IMG/VR virus record: IMGVR_UViG_2711768071_000008
Span: 1 to 8,852 of that record
Strand: one strand, 5' to 3'
Origin: a virus
Taxonomy: Duplodnaviria > Heunggongvirae > Uroviricota > Caudoviricetes
Length of the DNA stretch: 8,852 nt
A program made the translations under genes and the position numbers. The notes beneath the pieces are model-generated. The model searched no databases. It was not told the DNA's origin and was given only the letters and a program-made list of their open reading frames with translations. Shown here piece after piece: positions 36-8,852 of the stretch. Position 1 is the first letter of the stretch. Every line of letters starts with the position of its first letter.

Positions 36-81
36 ACCTTAACTTAATGATTTTTACCAAAATCATTAGGGGATTCATCAG
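1..81 (-). mobile_element. IS10 (Tn10-type) outside terminal end, partial; the element body lies beyond the window start
   Basis: The reverse complement of 1-81 reads CTGATGAATCCCCTAATGATTTTGGTAAAAATCATTAAGTTAAGGTGGATACACATCTTGTCATATGATCAAATGGTTTCG, which I recognise as the IS10 outside end. It contains a 10-bp AT-rich palindrome (45-54 / 59-68) and a GATC at 12-15. Recalled from memory, not searched. Confidence 0.85.
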
Positions 82-446
82 CGCTTCGCCTCTTCATCCG
101 TCACCCACTGGCTGCCATCCCAGCGCTGGTATTCTCCGTCTGGTGCAATAAATGTGCCATTTTCAGGAAGTTCCCCCAGTTCAGATATCGGGACTGCATT
201 TCCGGTTTCTGTTGAATAAACCGTTTCCCCCCGATGGTCTTCAACCAGACGCCATGAATTGTCAGCAGTATCAAACATTGCTGTAAAACCTTCGGGGATT
301 TCCGGCGGTACAATATCCGTACAGTTTGCGGGTAATCCGGTATGAGGCGGTATATAAGCGTCACCACTGCCGATAAATTCTTTTGTATCTTCAAGAAAAT
401 TAAATACACGAATGGTCCGTGCTTTATCGCTCATTTTAAAAGTCAT
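78..446 (-). CDS. Tail fibre assembly protein (Tfa / lambda Tfa / P2 gpG / P1 U family), C-terminally truncated by the IS10 insertion; 122 aa
   Basis: The translation has the conserved N-terminal chaperone motifs ([53 protein letters not shown]). Its ATG overlaps the fibre stop (TAATG at 444-448). Intact family members as I recall them are about 175-200 aa. The ORF ends at a TGA (78-80) supplied by the IS10 terminus. Confidence 0.8.
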
Positions 447-3412
447 TATGCAAGCCTCACAATATAGTTAAATGCGATGTTTTTGACGGTGTTTTCTGCG
501 TTACCAGTAGCGTTAACAGTGACGGTGTGTCCGTGTGAACCAATAGCAACAGTGTGCATATGAGCACCAATGCCGACAGTGTGCGCATGCGCACCAGCAG
601 ATTTGGTGTAAAGATTTACGGTGCCGGTACTCATATTTACTGTTTTGCCACTGCCGGCACTGACAGAAACATTTTCACCAACACCGTGATTATGACCACC
701 TGTGTTATTTGTTGATTTAGTTCCGTAGTCAAACGACGACGTGGTTTTCGTCCCCAAATCCGTACTGGATGCACTGGCACTGTGGGCGTGTGATTTAATG
801 CCGTCCTGTTCCTGAGACAATACGGCACGACCACTGGCGGGTTTGCCCTTAATCGTCCAGCCACGCATATCAGGGATCACGCCTGACGGATAAGCGGCTG
901 CAAGTTTCGGGTATGCAGATTTGTCAAAAGTCTGCCCCTGCATCAGGGCATAGCCAGACGGAACGGTATCTGATGGCCACGGGATTGGTGCGCCAGGCGG
1001 ATAAAACTGCTCTGATGGCGTATAGAGTGAATAAACTGTACCGTCCGTTAACCCTTCCGGCTTATTAGCAGAATATGCTGGTGACGTATGAATCGTCACG
1101 CTGGCATTACTGGTATAATCCCATTGAATATTTACACCAGTCGCATAATTTCCGATTGCAACGTAAATATCGTAAGTATCACCAGATGTATTAACCCAGG
1201 CAAAATTTGTAAACCCTGTCGATGTGCGCTGCCATAAAGCACCAGTAATCCCCTTCGGATTACCGTTACCTGCACGCAAAACAAGTTCAGATATACCTGC
1301 CTGTTGAGGTGACCCCACGTTAAATCCCGCGCCACCAATCAACGTAATTGAAACAACAGAACTTGCCTGCGGCATGGTTACAGTTGCCAGCTTGAACCAT
1401 CCTGCACCACCACTAAAAGACATTGTTGTGGAGTTGATTGTGCCTATAGACCGTGGGTTAAGTTCAATATCTTTAGAACCATCAAACGAAACACCGTTAA
1501 TAGTGCGCGCCGTCTGCAATCTGGTCGCCGTAGCAGCATTGCCGGAGGTATCCTGATCCCCTTTGGCATTGACGCCGGGAATTGAATCTTTTGACGTATA
1601 GACCTGCGCCCAGTCAGACCAATTGGAAGAATCAGTATCCCGCCGCGAACGGATATGTACGGGCGCATGGGCACCGCTCGTGCCGCTCCAGCCAATGAAT
1701 AACTCGCCTTCGCCAGCAGCGGTGGCACCTTTAAGGTGAAGCACATTCCCATAGGGAGAAGGGTAGCCATTGTTGTATGCCTCATACAGCTGAATCCCGG
1801 ATGTTCCCTGTGCATTCGCCTCCAGGGCCGTTACGCGACCGCGAGATACCAGAGTATTGATATTAATGTCAGCCGAACCATCGAACCTGACGCCATTAAT
1901 GTTTCTGGCTGTTTTTAATTTCGTCGTGGTGTCGGCGTTCCCCGCCAGCGCCCCGGTGATCCCACCGTTGAAAGTCTGGCGTGCACTCCATGTGTTAGCC
2001 GTGCTCAACAGGGGGATCTTTTCACCGCTGGTACCGAGTTCTCTTAAACCAAGGTATTGGATAACAGCAAGAACGCTTGTTTTGGCCAGAATATCGCGAC
2101 CGACTGACGTTAAGTCAGTCTGAGAAACAGTGTCTGTACCGGTAAAGTACGGCAATTTATTTGCACCTGTCGCAAGACCAGCAAGCGCGGTTAAAGTTGC
2201 ATCAAGTGGCTGTTTCCCTGCCAGCGCATTTGTCATTGTTGTCGCAAAGTTCGGGTCATTGCCCAGTGCTGCTGCAAGCTCATTCAGGGTATCAAGAGCT
2301 TCAGGTGATGAGCCGACCAATGCAGAGATAGCAGCCCGTACGTAAGCAGTCGTAGCGATCTGCGTATTGTTTGTGCCCTGTGCAGCCGTAGGCGCAGTAG
2401 GTATTCCCGTTAATGCAGGACTTGCTAAAGGAGCTTTAAGAGCCAGAGCATTGTTGATAGTTGTGCTGAAATTCGGGTCGTTATTGATCGCAGCCGCTAT
2501 TTCTTTCAGCGTATCCAGTGTGCCAGGCGCACCGTTGATAAGTGCAGTTATAGCTGCCTTAACAAAGGCTGTATTTGCGATCTGCGTGCTGTTTGTACCT
2601 TGCGCTGCCGTCGGCGCGGTTGGCGTTCCTGTCAGACTCGGGCTTTCTATTGGCGCTTTGGTATCAGCCAGATCTTTTATAGACTTAACAGCTTTAGGGG
2701 TAGCCGCCATTGTTTCGCTGTCGCTGTTAGTTGCGCTACTGAGCTGAACTAATCCCTTTTGCGTTGTGCTTGCATCCTGCGCCGTATACTTGCTTTTCGC
2801 CAGATCGTAGGCTTTTTTAACTGCCAGCGAACTTGCAGCAACATCACTTCTGGTACTGGTTACAGAGTCTGAAATATCAATGCCGATCGTGCGGTTGATA
2901 CGCTCGGATGTATCAATCATCTCCTGGGTAATAGCAGATACACCAGCAGGGATATTCACCGTACAAACAAGCAGCTCCCCATCACCTAACTGATATGAAT
3001 CGGTATAGATTCTGGCAACAAATTCAGCCGCATGAATATGTGACGCGGTATTCACCTGATAGGTATCTTCTCCAAGGAGGTATCTTCCCTTCAGCACAAT
3101 TGCATATTTCTTGCCTGCACTAAGTGCAAGAGAAATATCCTTACGTTGCTGAATAGTTACCTGGTAGAATTCACCAATATCCACCGACGCCGCGCCTGCG
3201 GTTTTATCACCATCCACTGAGGTGATTAACAGGTTCATCCCACCGCCAGGCTTAGGTAAGAAACCGGCATAAAATCCCGGGTCAACAATCCCCCTGAATT
3301 TTCGGTTTAGCGCGGCTGACAGATATGGTTCGTGGTATTGCACATCAGCCACCAGAGCCAACGACTCGGGTGATGGGTAAGTAACCGATGTGACAACTGT
3401 AACGTCATTCAT
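446..3412 (-). CDS. Tail fibre protein, mosaic (P2 gpH / lambda Stf-like repeats; T4 gp37 / lambda Stf-like His-rich C-terminal tip); 989 aa
   Basis: Long ORF. I place the start at ATG 3410-3412 (MNDVTVV) with an AAGGA ribosome-binding site about 9 nt upstream, because the 29 codons of the track ORF above it overlap the upstream gene. The translation contains [25 protein letters not shown], two copies of the LTG(T/I)[11 protein letters not shown]...[25 protein letters not shown] repeat, ILAK..VIQYLGL, and a C-terminus [50 protein letters not shown]. Confidence 0.9.
2039..2064. other. Serine DNA-invertase crossover site (hix/gix/cix/pix-like), 26-bp imperfect palindrome inside the tail fibre gene
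   Basis: TTCTCTTAAACCAAGGTATTGGATAA matches hixL (TTCTTGAAAACCAAGGTTTTTGATAA) at 22 of 26 positions and gix (TTCCTGTAAACCGAGGTTTTGGATAA) at 21 of 26, both sites as recalled. It has two 12-bp half-sites around a central AA and encodes the conserved VIQYLGLRE junction motif. Confidence 0.75.
2210..2659 (-). repeat. Two tandem copies of a ~225-bp coding repeat (about 75 aa each) in the constant part of the fibre gene
   Basis: Protein residues ~281-355 and ~356-430 are near-identical in pattern ([32 protein letters not shown]... versus [32 protein letters not shown]...). The DNA is visibly similar at a 225-bp offset, for example 2340-2415 versus 2565-2640. Confidence 0.7.
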
Positions 3413-3423
3413 TAAGCATATCC

Positions 3424-3858
3424 TTATGCTGTAGTCGTGTTTATGGCCATAACTGCGGTATATGTTTTGCCCACATACAGCGAGTCTTCCTGGACACAAA
3501 TAATGGCGATTGGCTTGTTCTCGTTATCCAGAACAACCAGAGTGTTGAATGGGTAGTTTTTCCCTTCCTGCAACTGGCTTTGATCAAGGTCCATTCGGAC
3601 AGTAATTATCCCACCTGAGTAGGTTGGCACGAGGTTGATGGTGCAAAATTGACTGGTCAGTTCTGCCAGATCGAAAGCCTTTGGCAGTTCTCCAATCTCA
3701 TAAGTGCCATCTCCTTTCTTAGTAACCAGCGAACTGGTACCGAAAACGGCCTTGCTGATTAAAAATCGAGAGCCTTTGTTAATGGACGATTCAGCGCGCC
3801 GCTGATAGTAATAGTCCAACAACTGACTCTTATAGAGGTTTGTTGAGACGTCAGACAT
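3424..3858 (-). CDS. Hypothetical phage protein, 144 aa, between the baseplate genes and the tail fibre (possible fibre-associated structural or assembly protein)
   Basis: Clean ORF with ATG at 3856-3858 and an AGGGAA ribosome-binding site about 6 nt upstream. Its stop lies 11 nt before the fibre start, in the same orientation as the operon. I recognise no motif. Its position matches what I recall of gene R in the P1 R-S-U operon. Confidence 0.6.
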
Positions 3859-3908
3859 GATTTTCCCTAATCAATGTTGTGAAGCCTCATTGTAAGAGAA
3901 GTAACTTG

Positions 3909-3933
3909 TCACCCCGCCCTGCGGACGGGGTGA
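3909..3933 (-). other. GC-rich stem-loop in the 78-bp intergenic spacer (possible attenuator, weak terminator or RNA-stability element)
   Basis: TCACCCCG (3909-3916) and CGGGGTGA (3926-3933) form an 8-bp stem with a 9-nt loop, starting 3 nt after the stop of the upstream gene. On the transcript it is followed by a moderately U-rich stretch (CAAGUUACUUCUCUUACA), not a clean U-run. Confidence 0.3.
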
Positions 3934-3936
3934 TTG

Positions 3937-4773
3937 TCAGGCGTCGCTATCCAGCAACAAATCATCTGCGCGTGTGCGATCAAACGTAGGTGTCGCTTTC
4001 ACAATAGTACCACCAGGCGTTGCGGTGATCGGGGCGCTAATCGACGTAACTCCAGTAAGCGAAGTTGTATCCGAAGTTTCAAACCAGCAGAATGCTTTTT
4101 CGGTATCAGAAATCTCGTTCAAAGTGATCATGTCGGCCTGTTCATTTACAACAACCGACAAATAGAGCGTAAGCCCATCAAACACTATATGCAGTGGCAG
4201 TAGAGGCTTTACGAACTGATTAAACTTTCTGAGAATTTCTTCTGTAATTGCGGACTGATCTATCGTGCCAGTAATCCCCATTGTCCGGGCCAGGTCGTTT
4301 ATGGGAATACTGATCATCCCTCTGGAAGTCAGAAACATCTCGCCGAATGTGCCGCCGGTAGTCTCCAGTGTGCTTTCTGGTATTAGAACCGTGCCATAGG
4401 GATGACGCTCAAGGTCCACCGGTGCATATATCGGATCCCATAAAACAGAAATACCGTTAAATTCGCGGTAAATTGTCTGGTTTATAGGGCGTTCAGTCCC
4501 CTTAAAGTGAATCTCATCAAGACGCTGTTGTAACAACATCGGAACGGAAGATGAGTTCGACGTTCTGATAGTAAAGAACTGGCCAAGTTCATTTGTCCTG
4601 GTCTCCAGATCCTCCTTGCTCATGGAAAAAATAGACTTCCGGTTGGTAATTCGCTCCAACCATGGGTCAACAAAGGTATCCATCATTGACTGAACCAAAT
4701 CAGCCAATGATTTATAGAGCAATGACTTTTGCTTAGCTGATGTAAGCCGGTTATTAAACCAGGAACGCTGCAT
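3937..4773 (-). CDS. Phage baseplate / tail protein I-like (P2 gpI / T4 gp7 / TssG position); 278 aa
   Basis: ATG at 4771-4773 overlaps the stop of the upstream gene (TGATG) and is preceded by GAGGAGGAG. The call rests on size and position after a J-like gene and before the fibre, not on a recognised motif. Confidence 0.6.
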   Translation of the reverse strand: MQRSWFNNRLTSAKQKSLLYKSLADLVQSMMDTFVDPWLERITNRKSIFSMSKEDLETRTNELGQFFTIRTSNSSSVPMLLQQRLDEIHFKGTERPINQTIYREFNGISVLWDPIYAPVDLERHPYGTVLIPESTLETTGGTFGEMFLTSRGMISIPINDLARTMGITGTIDQSAITEEILRKFNQFVKPLLPLHIVFDGLTLYLSVVVNEQADMITLNEISDTEKAFCWFETSDTTSLTGVTSISAPITATPGGTIVKATPTFDRTRADDLLLDSDA

Positions 4774-6206
4774 CACTCCTCCTCATACGAAATATTAAAG
4801 GTGGAGTTTTCTGTATCCAGATAAACGAAATCGTAAAAGCCGTTGGACTCATTCCACTCGACAAATTCCAGATAAAAGTCGCGGAAATAACCCAGCGTTT
4901 CGATAAATGCCCAAACGTCTTTTTTCTTGATTAGGATGTACTTGCCGACACGGTTCGGATCAAAGAAAGTTGAGTCACGCCCAAATTTTGTTTCCAGTGC
5001 CGACTTCAGCTCATCAGTCACGTTCTCAATGGTCAGGCTTGCCGATATCCGCCCGGTGATGGTGATCTTAAAGGGTAGTTTTCTGACCTCTTTATACGAG
5101 AATTTCTTGTTCAACTCATTCGGCACCTTCTTAAAGGCAGCCAGGATCATTTCTTCAAGCTCTGACTGGCTTTTGTTTGGATGCCATCCTGAAATAAATA
5201 TCTTATTGATATTCCGAACATTATAAGCACCATCTAATTTCTCTTGCTGGCCTTCGCCCCATGCCTTTACCCAGGACAGTCCCGGGATGTTACGCACCAG
5301 AAAATACGTATAGTCCCCGCCCCATACGACCTGATCATCATAGGCAAGGTAATATTGTGCACGATTACGTGTGATCTCCGTTGTTTCGGCATCGGTACCT
5401 GCGGTTATGGGTGTCGTTGTCTTAACTGAAATCAAATTAGCTAAATTAGCCGCAGAATCGACAGGCGTCAGATTTTGGCCAGCAACCAAGGTTATATCTC
5501 CGTTGGTGCACCATACCTTAAGCGTAATTGTCGAGCCTTCTGGCGGTATTTGCCCAATTAGCCCATCGCCGAATCGGACACCCAACTGTTCGGATGGTTT
5601 ATAAAACTCAACGTAGACCTGGCTTTTACTACCGGCTAACCGGAACATAGTGCTGGAAGACCACTGCGTGGTCTTACCATCGGTCGTCACGAATACTTCC
5701 AGCTTATAGCAGACAGCAGTGAGAGCCTTTGATAACACGACTTCCAGAAATTCTTTGGCTGCCGTAACGGTATATGTCACCTCCTGGATTTCCAACTGTG
5801 CCACTTCTACCGTACCGGTGCCGTCAACCAACCTGCATACATCCATAGTCATGTAAGGATACTGGTCGTCAGATATTAAAGGCATGTTTTTGGGGATTAC
5901 CGCTGGGGCATCTTCACTTGTGGCGGTGATCTCAATCATCCCCGATGACGGTGTTGGCTTGGTACCAACGTAACTATTCGTTTCTGCCGCTGCCAGGATA
6001 GAGGAACGCCGCGTCGCGGTCGATATAAAGCCTTCAGCCAGCGCCGCATCGGCATACTGAAAGCACCTGTAGACAATCTGGGTAATAAACAATGTCAGCA
6101 TCGAGACAAATTGAGAGCCGACAAACTTCGACCAGAATGAATCTTTCTCGACAAGCTCTTCAAACTCTGCACGAATACTGTCTTTAGTCGGTGTTGTTTT
6201 ACTCAT
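4773..6206 (-). CDS. Baseplate J-like protein (P2 gpJ / T4 gp6 / Mu gp47 family position); 477 aa
   Basis: Large ORF immediately downstream of the gp25/W-like gene with an ATGA start/stop overlap at 6203-6206. The assignment is by synteny of the W-J-I wedge trio; sequence motifs are not verified. Confidence 0.65.
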   Translation of the reverse strand: MSKTTPTKDSIRAEFEELVEKDSFWSKFVGSQFVSMLTLFITQIVYRCFQYADAALAEGFISTATRRSSILAAAETNSYVGTKPTPSSGMIEITATSEDAPAVIPKNMPLISDDQYPYMTMDVCRLVDGTGTVEVAQLEIQEVTYTVTAAKEFLEVVLSKALTAVCYKLEVFVTTDGKTTQWSSSTMFRLAGSKSQVYVEFYKPSEQLGVRFGDGLIGQIPPEGSTITLKVWCTNGDITLVAGQNLTPVDSAANLANLISVKTTTPITAGTDAETTEITRNRAQYYLAYDDQVVWGGDYTYFLVRNIPGLSWVKAWGEGQQEKLDGAYNVRNINKIFISGWHPNKSQSELEEMILAAFKKVPNELNKKFSYKEVRKLPFKITITGRISASLTIENVTDELKSALETKFGRDSTFFDPNRVGKYILIKKKDVWAFIETLGYFRDFYLEFVEWNESNGFYDFVYLDTENSTFNISYEEE

Positions 6207-6558
6207 AGCACCACGTCCTGTGTGATAGTTATATCCCTGATACGAATGGATATTTTCAACTTATCAAAAGCATCTCCCTCGGCTACTGACAAGCCAGAAA
6301 TCGGTATGTCAGGTAAATCTACCGTCAGTTTTTGCAACAGCATTGCCTCAACCGCAATTTGAACATGCGACAAGTTGGTCGGTTCGTGTTTAAACTGCGG
6401 TAAAACATTGCCCCATGACGGATCTCCGTATACCTCACCCTGATAAGTGTTTAGCCACTCATATAAACGAGCGCCCCAGGCCTCCTCCTGGGACTCATAC
6501 GTTTTTACGCCGGATAACTCCAGCGTCAGCAAAGGATCAATTTCGTTATTGTTGGCCA

Positions 6559-6559
<1 letters not shown>
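6203..6559 (-). CDS. Baseplate wedge protein, gp25 / GPW-like; 118 aa
   Basis: Small ORF. I prefer ATG 6557-6559 over the track's TTG at 6562; it overlaps the stop of the upstream gene (TGATG). Size and position directly before the J-like gene are typical of gp25/W/TssE-family proteins. Confidence 0.6.

Positions 6560-8852
<2,293 letters not shown>

Follow-up and report, generated by a model that had tools for sequence, protein, structure and literature searches.

The S tail fibre of a P1-like plasmid prophage is very probably a chain of modules with separate histories that ends in a gp37/Stf-type tip

Tail fibre genes that resemble several unrelated phages at once raise the question of whether they belong to a single fibre family or are assembled from parts with different ancestries. 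For the gene considered here, the original prediction favoured the second answer, namely a conserved proximal half like P2 gpH, a crossover site and a variable distal half with a tip of the T4 gp37/lambda Stf type. The window (the whole analysed stretch of DNA, 8,852 nucleotides) is an entire 8.9-kb draft contig, the ends of which lie in IS10, cutting tfa, and in IS100, cutting sit. Gene S occupies positions 446-3412 (minus strand); it belongs to a P1-like (Punavirus) plasmid prophage in E. coli and encodes a tail fibre protein of 988 aa, as defined from the open reading frame and its alignment to P1 gpS. The listed frame began at TTG 3499 (1017 aa), and the real start was set by that alignment at ATG 3412; residue numbers in the original prediction are therefore equal to the present numbers plus 29. 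The stop codon TAA (446-448) shares bases with the start codon of tfa (TAATG). A protein look-up identified the S protein as WP_053880920.1 (E. coli), and its full-length sequence forms a 90%-identity cluster of one in a collection of about 15 billion proteins.

The surroundings of S are those of a Punavirus. The gene order sit-pmgA-bplA-16-R-S is shared with P1, P7 and JL22 at 96-98% DNA identity over window positions 1461-8746, and among complete E. coli genomes, plasmids and phages the best match to the window reached 96-97% DNA identity, none being exact. The P1 late promoter LPs (3889-3907, minus strand; -22 box AAGTTACTT, -10 box TACAAT) is kept upstream of R-S-tfa with one spacer change relative to the P1 annotation, and gene R (3424-3858, minus strand; Pfam Phage_P1_tail_fiber_R) stands first in the fibre operon, so placed that R, S and tfa would be transcribed together from LPs. 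S shares with P1 gpS this operon and late promoter, an Sc part that is 98% identical, an identical cixR site at the Sc/Sv joint and, after it, the 0.6-kb terminal repeat of the C segment, whereas P1 Sv runs into a tip of the P2 H/Mu S type (...YINGIWYNVAQV) with a U-type chaperone and the S fibre does not, its aa 652-988 being of other types. P1 gpS is 97% identical to the fibre over aa 1-656 only (blastp), and SJ46 gpS matches aa 1-458 only. These limits, and the further ones described below, argue strongly that the S fibre consists of successive modules, each with a history of its own, and has a gp37/Stf-type tip.

The N-terminal part of Sc (aa 1-179; 2876-3412, minus strand) is specific to P1-like phages, with 98-99% identity to P1, JL22 and SJ46 and 43% to D6; no match was found to P2 H, lambda Stf, Mu S or T4 gp37, and none to P2 gpH even at E = 10. 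From its position, it presumably attaches the fibre to the baseplate. The C-terminal shaft of Sc (aa 180-455; 2048-2875, minus strand) carries Phage_fiber_2 repeats (Pfam PF03406, E = 6.8e-30, in two stretches) of the unit SPxLTGxPTAPTA...TQIATTAFV, and the repeated elements a0, a1, b1 and b2 annotated in P1 map to about 2213-2824. P2 gpH matches aa 180-458 only, at 59-66% identity (gpH 168-383, ending in ...EYLGL followed by QE at the cix position), and Mu S has the joint and a Phage_fiber_2 repeat in common with S; however, P2 gpH and Mu S are unrelated to S in the N-terminus, in everything beyond the joint and in the chaperone, which is of the G/U type, so that the homology of whole proteins, including N-terminus and tip, that would make S a P2 gpH-type fibre was not found. 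The predicted likeness of the proximal half to P2 gpH thus stands for aa 180-458 and falls for the Punavirus-specific aa 1-179, and assigning this half to P2 gpH as opposed to lambda Stf proved too simple, since lambda Stf also matches the proximal side, over the 130 aa that precede cix (aa 326-458 with Stf 394-526, 73%). The lambda side tail fibre Stf is orf401 plus orf314 in frameshifted laboratory lambda.

The Sc/Sv joint is marked by the predicted crossover site, the 26-bp Cin-type invertase site cixR (2039-2064, plus strand; TTCTCTTAAACCAAGGTATTGGATAA), which is identical over all 26 bp to P1 cixR, occurs once in the window and encodes ...QYLGL followed by RE... at the joint. DNA homology to P2 H, lambda stf and SJ46 stops at window positions 2045-2049, inside the site. 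Distal to it lies an adaptor shaft (aa 456-651; 1460-2047, minus strand), in which a domain of about 115 aa is set between two motif copies and for which neither a Pfam family nor a PDB relative was found by sequence; it corresponds to the 0.6-kb repeat that terminates the P1 C segment. Window positions 1461-2062 match both C-segment ends of P1 and JL22 (97% and 94.5-94.7%); being present at both ends, the repeat is therefore the same in both orientations in P1. Consequently, of the distal half described as variable (446-2038), positions 446-1460 merit the term, and the first 0.6 kb after cix (1461-2062) does not, being constant in P1.

Both predicted copies of a TAR-x-INGV-x-FDGS-x-DI shaft motif lie within the ranges foreseen for them (1460-1525 and 1856-1921). 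Copy 1 spans aa 501-516 (1865-1912, minus strand) and copy 2 aa 634-649 (1466-1513, minus strand), both reading TARxINGVxFDGSxDI, and copy 2 is the last element shared with P1, the homology to which ends at window position 1461. In their best 29-aa register, 20 residues are alike, and none of 100 shuffles gave more than 12; a recent duplication is ruled out by the DNA of the copies, which is only 60% identical. A megablast match to the P1-like phage MH422554 breaks off at 1908, inside copy 1, directly after which that phage has an extra motif unit. In the 120 nearest relatives of aa 456-803, the motif is present in one to seven copies and the C-terminal tips are of at least four types.

The presence of cixR suggests that S could belong to an active Cin-type switch, in which the segment distal to the site inverts and alternates two tips, as in P1, P7, D6 and JL22. 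The site is intact and the same as that of P1, and JL22, with an S protein 91% identical to this one, has cin, a second, inverted 0.6-kb repeat and a Mu-type Sv'/U' set. We nevertheless consider such a switch improbable, because only one cix site and no inverted repeat occur in the window, and because a sister contig from an independent assembly (56 kb, with uninterrupted genes and one substitution in 8.67 kb) has neither a second cix within 3 mismatches in 23 kb nor an inverted repeat. Its invertase consists of two fragments only, an 87-aa HTH_7 part and a 74-aa Resolvase part on opposite strands, and its further fibre gene lies on the same strand as S. An invertase of another prophage could act in trans, yet the partner site is missing. 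A partner cixL, an intact Cin and two alternative Sv/U sets were thus found neither in the window nor in the sister contig, and with cixL and an intact invertase absent from the latter, switching by inversion is unlikely. We caution that the contig stops inside IS elements, and the rest of tfa and sit, a cixL or an invertase could therefore lie elsewhere in the genome.

Leaving the switch aside, the modular reading continues beyond the point at which P1 homology ends. The middle module (aa 652-803; 1004-1459, minus strand) is predicted to be all-beta and was not found in P1, P2, Mu, lambda or T4. By tblastn its relatives are in JL22 (95%) and the T5-like Salmonella phage Kenya-K18 (67%), with weaker ones in T2 gp37 (48%) and FelixO1-like phages (about 40%). 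Sequence searches with aa 456-803 returned neither a Pfam family nor a relative of solved structure, and NCBIfam gave zero matches anywhere in S or Tfa. An AF2 model of aa 456-803, made from a 30-sequence alignment, is poor (mean pLDDT 53.7), with only aa 652-795 reaching pLDDT 62-79 and strands as the only secondary structure, and a Foldseek search of the PDB with this poor model gave weak partial matches to tailspike-like beta-sandwich parts (6TGF, E = 2.5e-5, TM 0.32).

The tip (aa 804-988) bears out the likeness to T4 gp37 and lambda Stf that had been proposed for a distal segment and for the C-terminus: the stretches quoted in the original prediction match both proteins, with a phmmer E value of 1.4e-75 for the T4 gp37 tip (PDB 2XGF; blastp 65% identity, over aa 792-988 only) and an E value of 4e-80 for lambda Stf (Stf 530-774 with aa 804-988, 60%). 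Mapped with the domain limits of T4 gp37 D10 and D11 (PMC6957217), the collar domain (aa 802-873; 794-1009, minus strand) corresponds to D10 residues 811-881 and matches the Pfam family Collar (PF07484; 45.9 bits, cut-off 24; E = 5.5e-12), the needle (aa 874-971; 500-793, minus strand) corresponds to D11 (882-1009), and the C-terminal strand that returns to the collar (aa 972-988; 449-499, minus strand) corresponds to D10 residues 1010-1026 and is invariant in T4, lambda and JL22. The tips of S, JL22, T4 and lambda have 113 invariant columns, including the non-repetitive collar, with stretches such as KSAYPKLA and PDMRG, and the last 20 residues; in DNA, the collar is 87% identical to lambda stf. 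S therefore shares with T4 gp37 the collar, the first and last parts of the needle, the His-x-His motifs, the C-terminal strand and a chaperone gene immediately downstream, as in gp37/gp38, whereas no similarity to T4 gp37 exists proximal to aa 792.

The gp37 tip of T4 consists of a collar and an iron-binding needle, the distal residues of which bind OmpC/LPS (PMC6957217; PMC5221442). In S, the needle has five His-x-His motifs along its putative ascending and descending strands, starting at H875, H907, H942, H951 and H960 and aligned with the T4 motifs at 883, 915, 980, 989 and 998, compared with seven in T4, eight in lambda and six in JL22. By analogy with T4, these motifs would bind iron, and the tip would form trimers, bind metal and contact a receptor, the needle being held together by the His-x-His ladders and its short variable centre making the contact. 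That centre (aa 910-939; 596-685, minus strand) is the only block not conserved among S, JL22, T4 and lambda, and presumably serves as the receptor-contacting head. It resembles neither T4 nor lambda, being about 30 aa long against about 60 aa of unrelated sequence in T4 and about 85 aa in lambda Stf. JL22, whose modules follow the same order from end to end at 91% identity, differs at this very place, its needle centre and tfa having diverged (75% DNA identity; Tfa 61%), and neither a cixL nor an invertase is found near S here; the near-identity of its DNA (97%, window positions 716-8746) stops at 716, and a weaker match of 75% is confined to 216-595. The T4 residues equivalent to the needle centre, 937-955, set OmpC/LPS binding (PMC5221442, PMC6957217). 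Since the segment of S aligned with T4 930-965, in which this contact maps, is unrelated and half as long, the OmpC/LPS specificity of T4 cannot be transferred to S. We raise, tentatively and as rather doubtful, the possibility that the tip is a minimal natural gp37/Stf needle with five His-x-His rungs, a 30-residue centre unlike any characterised and a receptor unlike those of T4 and lambda; if the tip folds with its Tfa, it would give P1-based delivery vectors a compact scaffold on which to engineer host range.

In these features S agrees with the tip-plus-chaperone family of about 215 aa that, according to the available part of the report by Magaziner & Salmond (2022; PMC9659904), is common to T4, lambda and more than 200 other phages: the homology is confined to the last 200 or so aa, including the Collar and a His-x-His ladder, divergence is centred on the region of receptor specificity, and a gp38/Tfa-like gene follows directly downstream. 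It differs in its carrier, no P1-like phage being described in that part of the report (PMC9659904), and in a chaperone gene that is cut by IS10.

This gene, tfa (78-446, minus strand), which overlaps the stop codon of S, encodes the cognate tail-fibre assembly chaperone of the lambda Tfa/T4 gp38 type (61% identity to lambda Tfa and 34% to T4 gp38), not of the U type. The outer end of IS10 (1-81; annotated as ISVsa5 family) is inserted in it at the target GGCGAAGCG and cuts it at codon 122, the stop codon being supplied by IS10, whereas the sister contig has a full-length Tfa of 191 aa; the cut protein matches the Caudo_TAP profile only over profile positions 1-59 of 131. In Tfa proteins, an N-terminal domain binds the fibre and a conserved C-terminal domain drives trimerisation (PMC9608196), and it is the latter that IS10 removes. 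With IS10 in tfa and IS100 in sit, it is thus unlikely that working particles with this fibre are assembled, unless the Tfa of a resident prophage substitutes.

That S is intact between two cut genes might be taken to mean that it is kept for a function in the host, such as masking a receptor from other phages, for which there is a precedent in the chimeric StfE2 of prophage e14, a fibre-derived protein of a cryptic prophage that blocks T2 adsorption (PMC12529663). We consider this very improbable because S sits behind a phage late promoter, because a gp37-type tip would not be expected to fold without its chaperone, and because the IS insertions are very recent, as judged from the single substitution relative to the uninterrupted sister contig. 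For this last reason, the intactness of S is uninformative about selection.

Evidence for the mosaic itself comes from comparing the fibre domain by domain, which revealed the breakpoint pattern that had been predicted and supports its reading as horizontal exchange of receptor-binding modules; uniform homology to one fibre family without a breakpoint near cix was not seen. Homologies break at window positions 2045-2049, 1908, 1461 and 596-716. In lambda Stf, the blocks matching aa 326-458 and aa 804-988 abut at ...EYLGA followed by GENSAFPAGAPIPW, exactly at the cix position, so that S has 349 extra residues between them; the N-termini of S and lambda Stf are unrelated. Codon composition also changes along the gene, third-position GC (GC3) being 0.546 in aa 456-651 and 0.362 in aa 652-803 (P = 9e-4), with steps at module borders (0.41 and 0.36 for the neighbours of aa 456-651). 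The GC contrast that had been suggested as a check on the two sides of cix was not significant overall (P = 0.27), the heterogeneity lying at internal module borders instead.

It could be argued that S is a single fibre family that has diverged unevenly, its likeness to T4 and lambda reflecting ancestry of the whole gene, given that all segments are fibre-like and rich in glycine, serine and threonine and that PHROG fibre families overlap one another; this has next to no plausibility, because each homology begins and ends sharply, passing at shared positions between 60-97% identity and no detectable similarity, lambda Stf joins blocks that are 349 aa apart in S, and SJ46 is 98% identical through residue 458 and unrelated beyond. 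Nor do we give any appreciable weight to a gp37/Stf likeness that is compositional (His-x-His motifs and glycine-rich repeats) or convergent: the needle region is indeed repetitive, but the invariant columns extend through the non-repetitive collar and the last 20 residues, 2XGF is matched at E = 1.4e-75, the DNA shows 87% identity with lambda stf across 292 bases, and the cognate chaperone gene is homologous too. A chimeric assembly of reads from a P1-like and a lambdoid prophage, conceivable for a short-read draft contig that constitutes the whole window and ends in repeats, is practically dismissed by the occurrence of the same 8.67 kb within the 56-kb contig of an independent assembly and of the same architecture in complete records (JL22 and O111 and O26 plasmids).

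A modular S fibre is an ordinary case of a process recognised long ago, the trading of fibre modules among phages. For P1, P2, lambda and T4, fibre genes of mosaic make-up were reportedly described in 1989-1992, and the mosaic of S is therefore of a kind already known; with the principle dating from those years and the tip family catalogued in 2022, current understanding is unchanged. What S adds is a clean, fully dissected case of a fibre gene built from exchangeable modules, whose joint maps are useful for designing chimeric fibres in P1-, P2- or T4-based delivery or therapy, and a reminder for annotation that the labels 'S', 'Stf' and 'gp37' each cover only part of such proteins.

As to how the modules may have been exchanged, the joints coincide with sequences that are conserved, namely the cix site, the shaft motif and the His-x-His flanks of the receptor-binding centre, which fits recombination there; the route could have been either homologous recombination between such sequences or the action of an invertase on cix-like sites. 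The tip would have arrived together with its cognate chaperone gene of the lambda Tfa type, and the exchange partners were probably the Stf-Tfa modules of lambdoid prophages carried by most E. coli. Relatives of the tip-plus-tfa DNA at 80-91% identity are present in 3,866 of 5,426 complete E. coli genomes and are nearly all chromosomal.

The fibre gene S (minus strand, 446-3412) is confirmed to be a mosaic, and the original prediction of a variable distal half ending in a T4 gp37/lambda Stf-type tip, with a breakpoint near the invertase crossover site, is supported with corrections; the relatives differ from segment to segment, and homology to P2, lambda and SJ46 ends inside that site, cixR. 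Mechanical ORF calling had started S at TTG 3499, giving 1,017 aa and an overlap with the end of gene R; alignment with P1 gpS places the P1-homologous start at ATG 3412, giving 988 aa, so 29 residues of the listed translation are not protein and the residue numbers first proposed equal S numbers plus 29. The split proposed in that longer numbering (30-483, 484-830 and 831-1017) matches the real module borders almost exactly.

Local blastp against proteins of P1, JL22, SJ46, D6, MH422554, P2, Mu, lambda and T4 resolved S into modules, and the best PHROG family differs for every segment. Residues 1-179 matched P1-like phages only, at 98-99% in P1, JL22 and SJ46. In D6 the identity over this stretch (window 2876-3412) is 43%, versus 82-87% over the next two modules, which argues that the proximal fibre end has also been exchanged among P1-like phages. 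Residues 180-455, which contain Phage_fiber_2 repeats and the a/b repeated elements annotated in P1, are related to P1-like phages and to P2 gpH (59-66%), and lambda Stf matches the shaft over aa 326-458 (73%). The proposed resemblance of the proximal half to P2 gpH thus holds for aa 180-455 but not for aa 1-179; S shares only this shaft with P2 gpH and is otherwise not a P2 gpH-type fibre. Residues 456-651 matched P1, JL22 and D6 and are the counterpart of the 0.6-kb repeat that forms either end of the invertible segment of P1 and JL22, with remoter relatives in P7 (79%), Gifsy-2 Stf, Vibrio phages and gp37 of Acinetobacter phage 133. Residues 652-803 have no counterpart in P1, P2, Mu, lambda or T4; their identity is 95% with JL22, 67% with a T5-like Salmonella phage, 48% with T2 gp37 and ~40% with FelixO1-like fibres. 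The gp37/Stf tip occupies aa 804-988. Sequence searches with aa 456-803 hit neither a Pfam family nor a PDB relative, AF2 gave a low-confidence model of this stretch, and NCBIfam had zero matches in S or Tfa.

Both predicted copies of the shaft motif were found, the first at aa 501-516 (nt 1865-1912) and the second at aa 634-649 (nt 1466-1513). Aligned together with flanking sequence, the two agree at 20 of 29 residues, where shuffled sequence gave 12 at most; as DNA they are only 60% identical, which points to an old duplication. In the 120 database proteins closest to aa 456-803, motif number ranges from 1 to 7 and at least four C-terminal tip types occur (...FNYIVRLA in 29, ...TWYNAGSI in 17, ...TWYNVAQV in 10 and ...ICIIEEFA in 9).

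The breakpoints are sharp at several of these borders. The 26 bp at 2039-2064 are identical to P1 cixR and occur once in the window, and DNA homology stops within them for P2 H (2045), lambda stf (2049) and SJ46 (2045). The protein joints (slash) read ...QYLGL/RELGTS in S, ...EYLGL/QETVN in P2, ...QNLGL/QETVN in Mu and ...EYLGA/ in lambda. In lambda the shaft thus runs directly into the collar; relative to lambda Stf, S carries 349 residues inserted between the shared shaft and collar, and lambda homology restarts at 1001. P1 homology ends at 1461, directly past motif copy 2, and the match to the P1-like phage MH422554 stops at 1908, within motif copy 1, where that phage has an extra motif unit. 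The GC comparison suggested for the two sides of cixR gave no significant difference in GC3 between distal and proximal parts; from module to module, GC3 was 0.41 for aa 181-455, 0.55 for aa 456-651 and 0.36 for aa 652-803 (P = 0.005 and 0.0009 for the two steps). Such joints could be the work of an invertase on cix-like sites or of homologous recombination between conserved stretches.

The predicted C-terminus was borne out: the last 200 residues of S matched the crystallised T4 gp37 tip (2XGF) with an E value of 1.4e-75 and lambda Stf at 60% identity. Homology to the solved tip is thus established at the sequence level, and in every feature that can be read from sequence the tip belongs to the T4 gp37/lambda Stf family. 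A four-way alignment of S, JL22, T4 and lambda has 113 invariant columns, spanning the collar, the needle start, a run of three His-x-His motifs and the final 20 residues. The sole unconserved block lies at aa 910-939 (nt 596-685) and measures 30 residues in S, ~60 in T4 and ~85 in lambda. In T4 gp37, D10 comprises residues 811-881 and 1010-1026, and D11, with seven iron sites, residues 882-1009 (PMC6957217); mapped onto S, these limits place the collar at aa 802-873, the needle at aa 874-971 and the return strand at aa 972-988, the needle holding five His-x-His motifs versus seven in T4. OmpC/LPS binding is set by T4 residues 937-955 (PMC5221442; PMC6957217), which align within the unconserved block, and T4's specificity therefore cannot be carried over to this fibre. 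By analogy with T4, lambda and Mu, the fibre would be a trimer docked on the baseplate by its N-terminus, with a needle whose His-x-His rungs bind metal and stabilise it, a variable needle centre touching the receptor and folding dependent on Tfa.

The tfa gene overlaps the S stop codon; its product shares 61% identity with lambda Tfa and 34% with T4 gp38, was unrelated to P1 U by blastp, and is, by homology, the cognate chaperone of the S tip. The overlap (TAATG, 444-448) suggests translational coupling of fibre and chaperone. A lambda-Tfa-type chaperone beside S is in keeping with the rule that tips of this family move together with their chaperone (PMC9659904). Relatives of the tip and tfa DNA (80-91%) are present in 3,866 of 5,426 complete E. 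coli genomes, nearly always on the chromosome, and resident lambdoid prophages are therefore likely to have been the donors. Fibre mosaicism of this kind is already known: exchange among P1, p15B, e14, Mu, P2, lambda and T4 fibre genes was reportedly described in 1992 by Sandmeier et al. and by Haggard-Ljungquist et al., lambda and T4 tips are said to be functionally interchangeable (the work of Montag et al., 1989), and P1-like phages with stf/tfa-type modules, such as JL22, are already deposited and annotated.

The long ORFs of the window are all on the minus strand, and in megablast against phage records 1461-8746 or more is 96-98% identical to P1, P7, RCS47 and JL22. P1 and JL22 annotations give the genes as sit, pmgA, bplA, 16, R and S, followed by the tail-fibre assembly gene, with the P1 late promoter LPs conserved upstream of R (3889-3907). 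By its constant part, cixR and terminal repeat, S is assigned to the P1 gpS family; the tip and chaperone of P1 itself are missing, and the inversion switch is absent as far as the element is visible. An exact-protein match identified the window as the entire contig CYGA01000059.1 (GCA_001284285.1) in reverse, and a 56-kb contig of a second assembly, the sister contig, shares 8.67 kb with it apart from a single substitution. S corresponds to WP_053880920.1 (E. coli), the sole member of its 90%-identity cluster.

Insertion sequences disrupt both tfa and sit. The outer end of IS10 (1-81; transposase annotated as ISVsa5 family in matching records) lies at one edge, the window ending inside the element. 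It entered tfa after codon 121 at the near-consensus target GGCGAAGCG, matching the IS10 target consensus NGCTNAGCN at 5 of its 6 specified positions. IS10 supplies the tfa stop codon; in the near-identical sister contig, CYBW01000029.1, Tfa is full-length (191 aa). The insertion thereby deletes the conserved C-terminal domain, which in Tfa proteins probably drives trimerisation (PMC9608196). At the other edge, the left end of IS100 (IS21 family; 8746-8852), including the istA start (ATGGTCACTTTTGAGACAGTT), has removed the first ~400 sit codons and thus left only the C-terminal ~729 of about 1130-1140; the listed 738-aa GTG ORF (6559-8775) extends into IS100. Over 8.67 kb, a T/C substitution at 8225, in sit, is the only base differing from the sister contig, so both insertions are very recent. 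Insertion sequences commonly erode this region in P1-like plasmids (PMC6906374).

Only a single cix site and two invertase fragments are present in the sister contig, and this lineage is therefore probably unable to switch tips. Downstream of the intact tfa of that contig (13588-16501) lie two genes on the S strand, one of 538 aa whose product has a lambda-Stf-type N-terminal domain (phage_tail_N) and one of 190 aa with DUF4376, and then the invertase fragments (87-aa HTH_7 and 74-aa Resolvase), which face opposite ways; a second cix site was not found in this stretch, which looks like a rearranged, locked inversion region akin to that of SJ46 (95% over 1.1 kb). In JL22, a gene annotated as serine acetyltransferase (sacF, 4054-4530) lies within the invertible fibre segment between U' and tfa, and resembles an unusually placed cargo gene.
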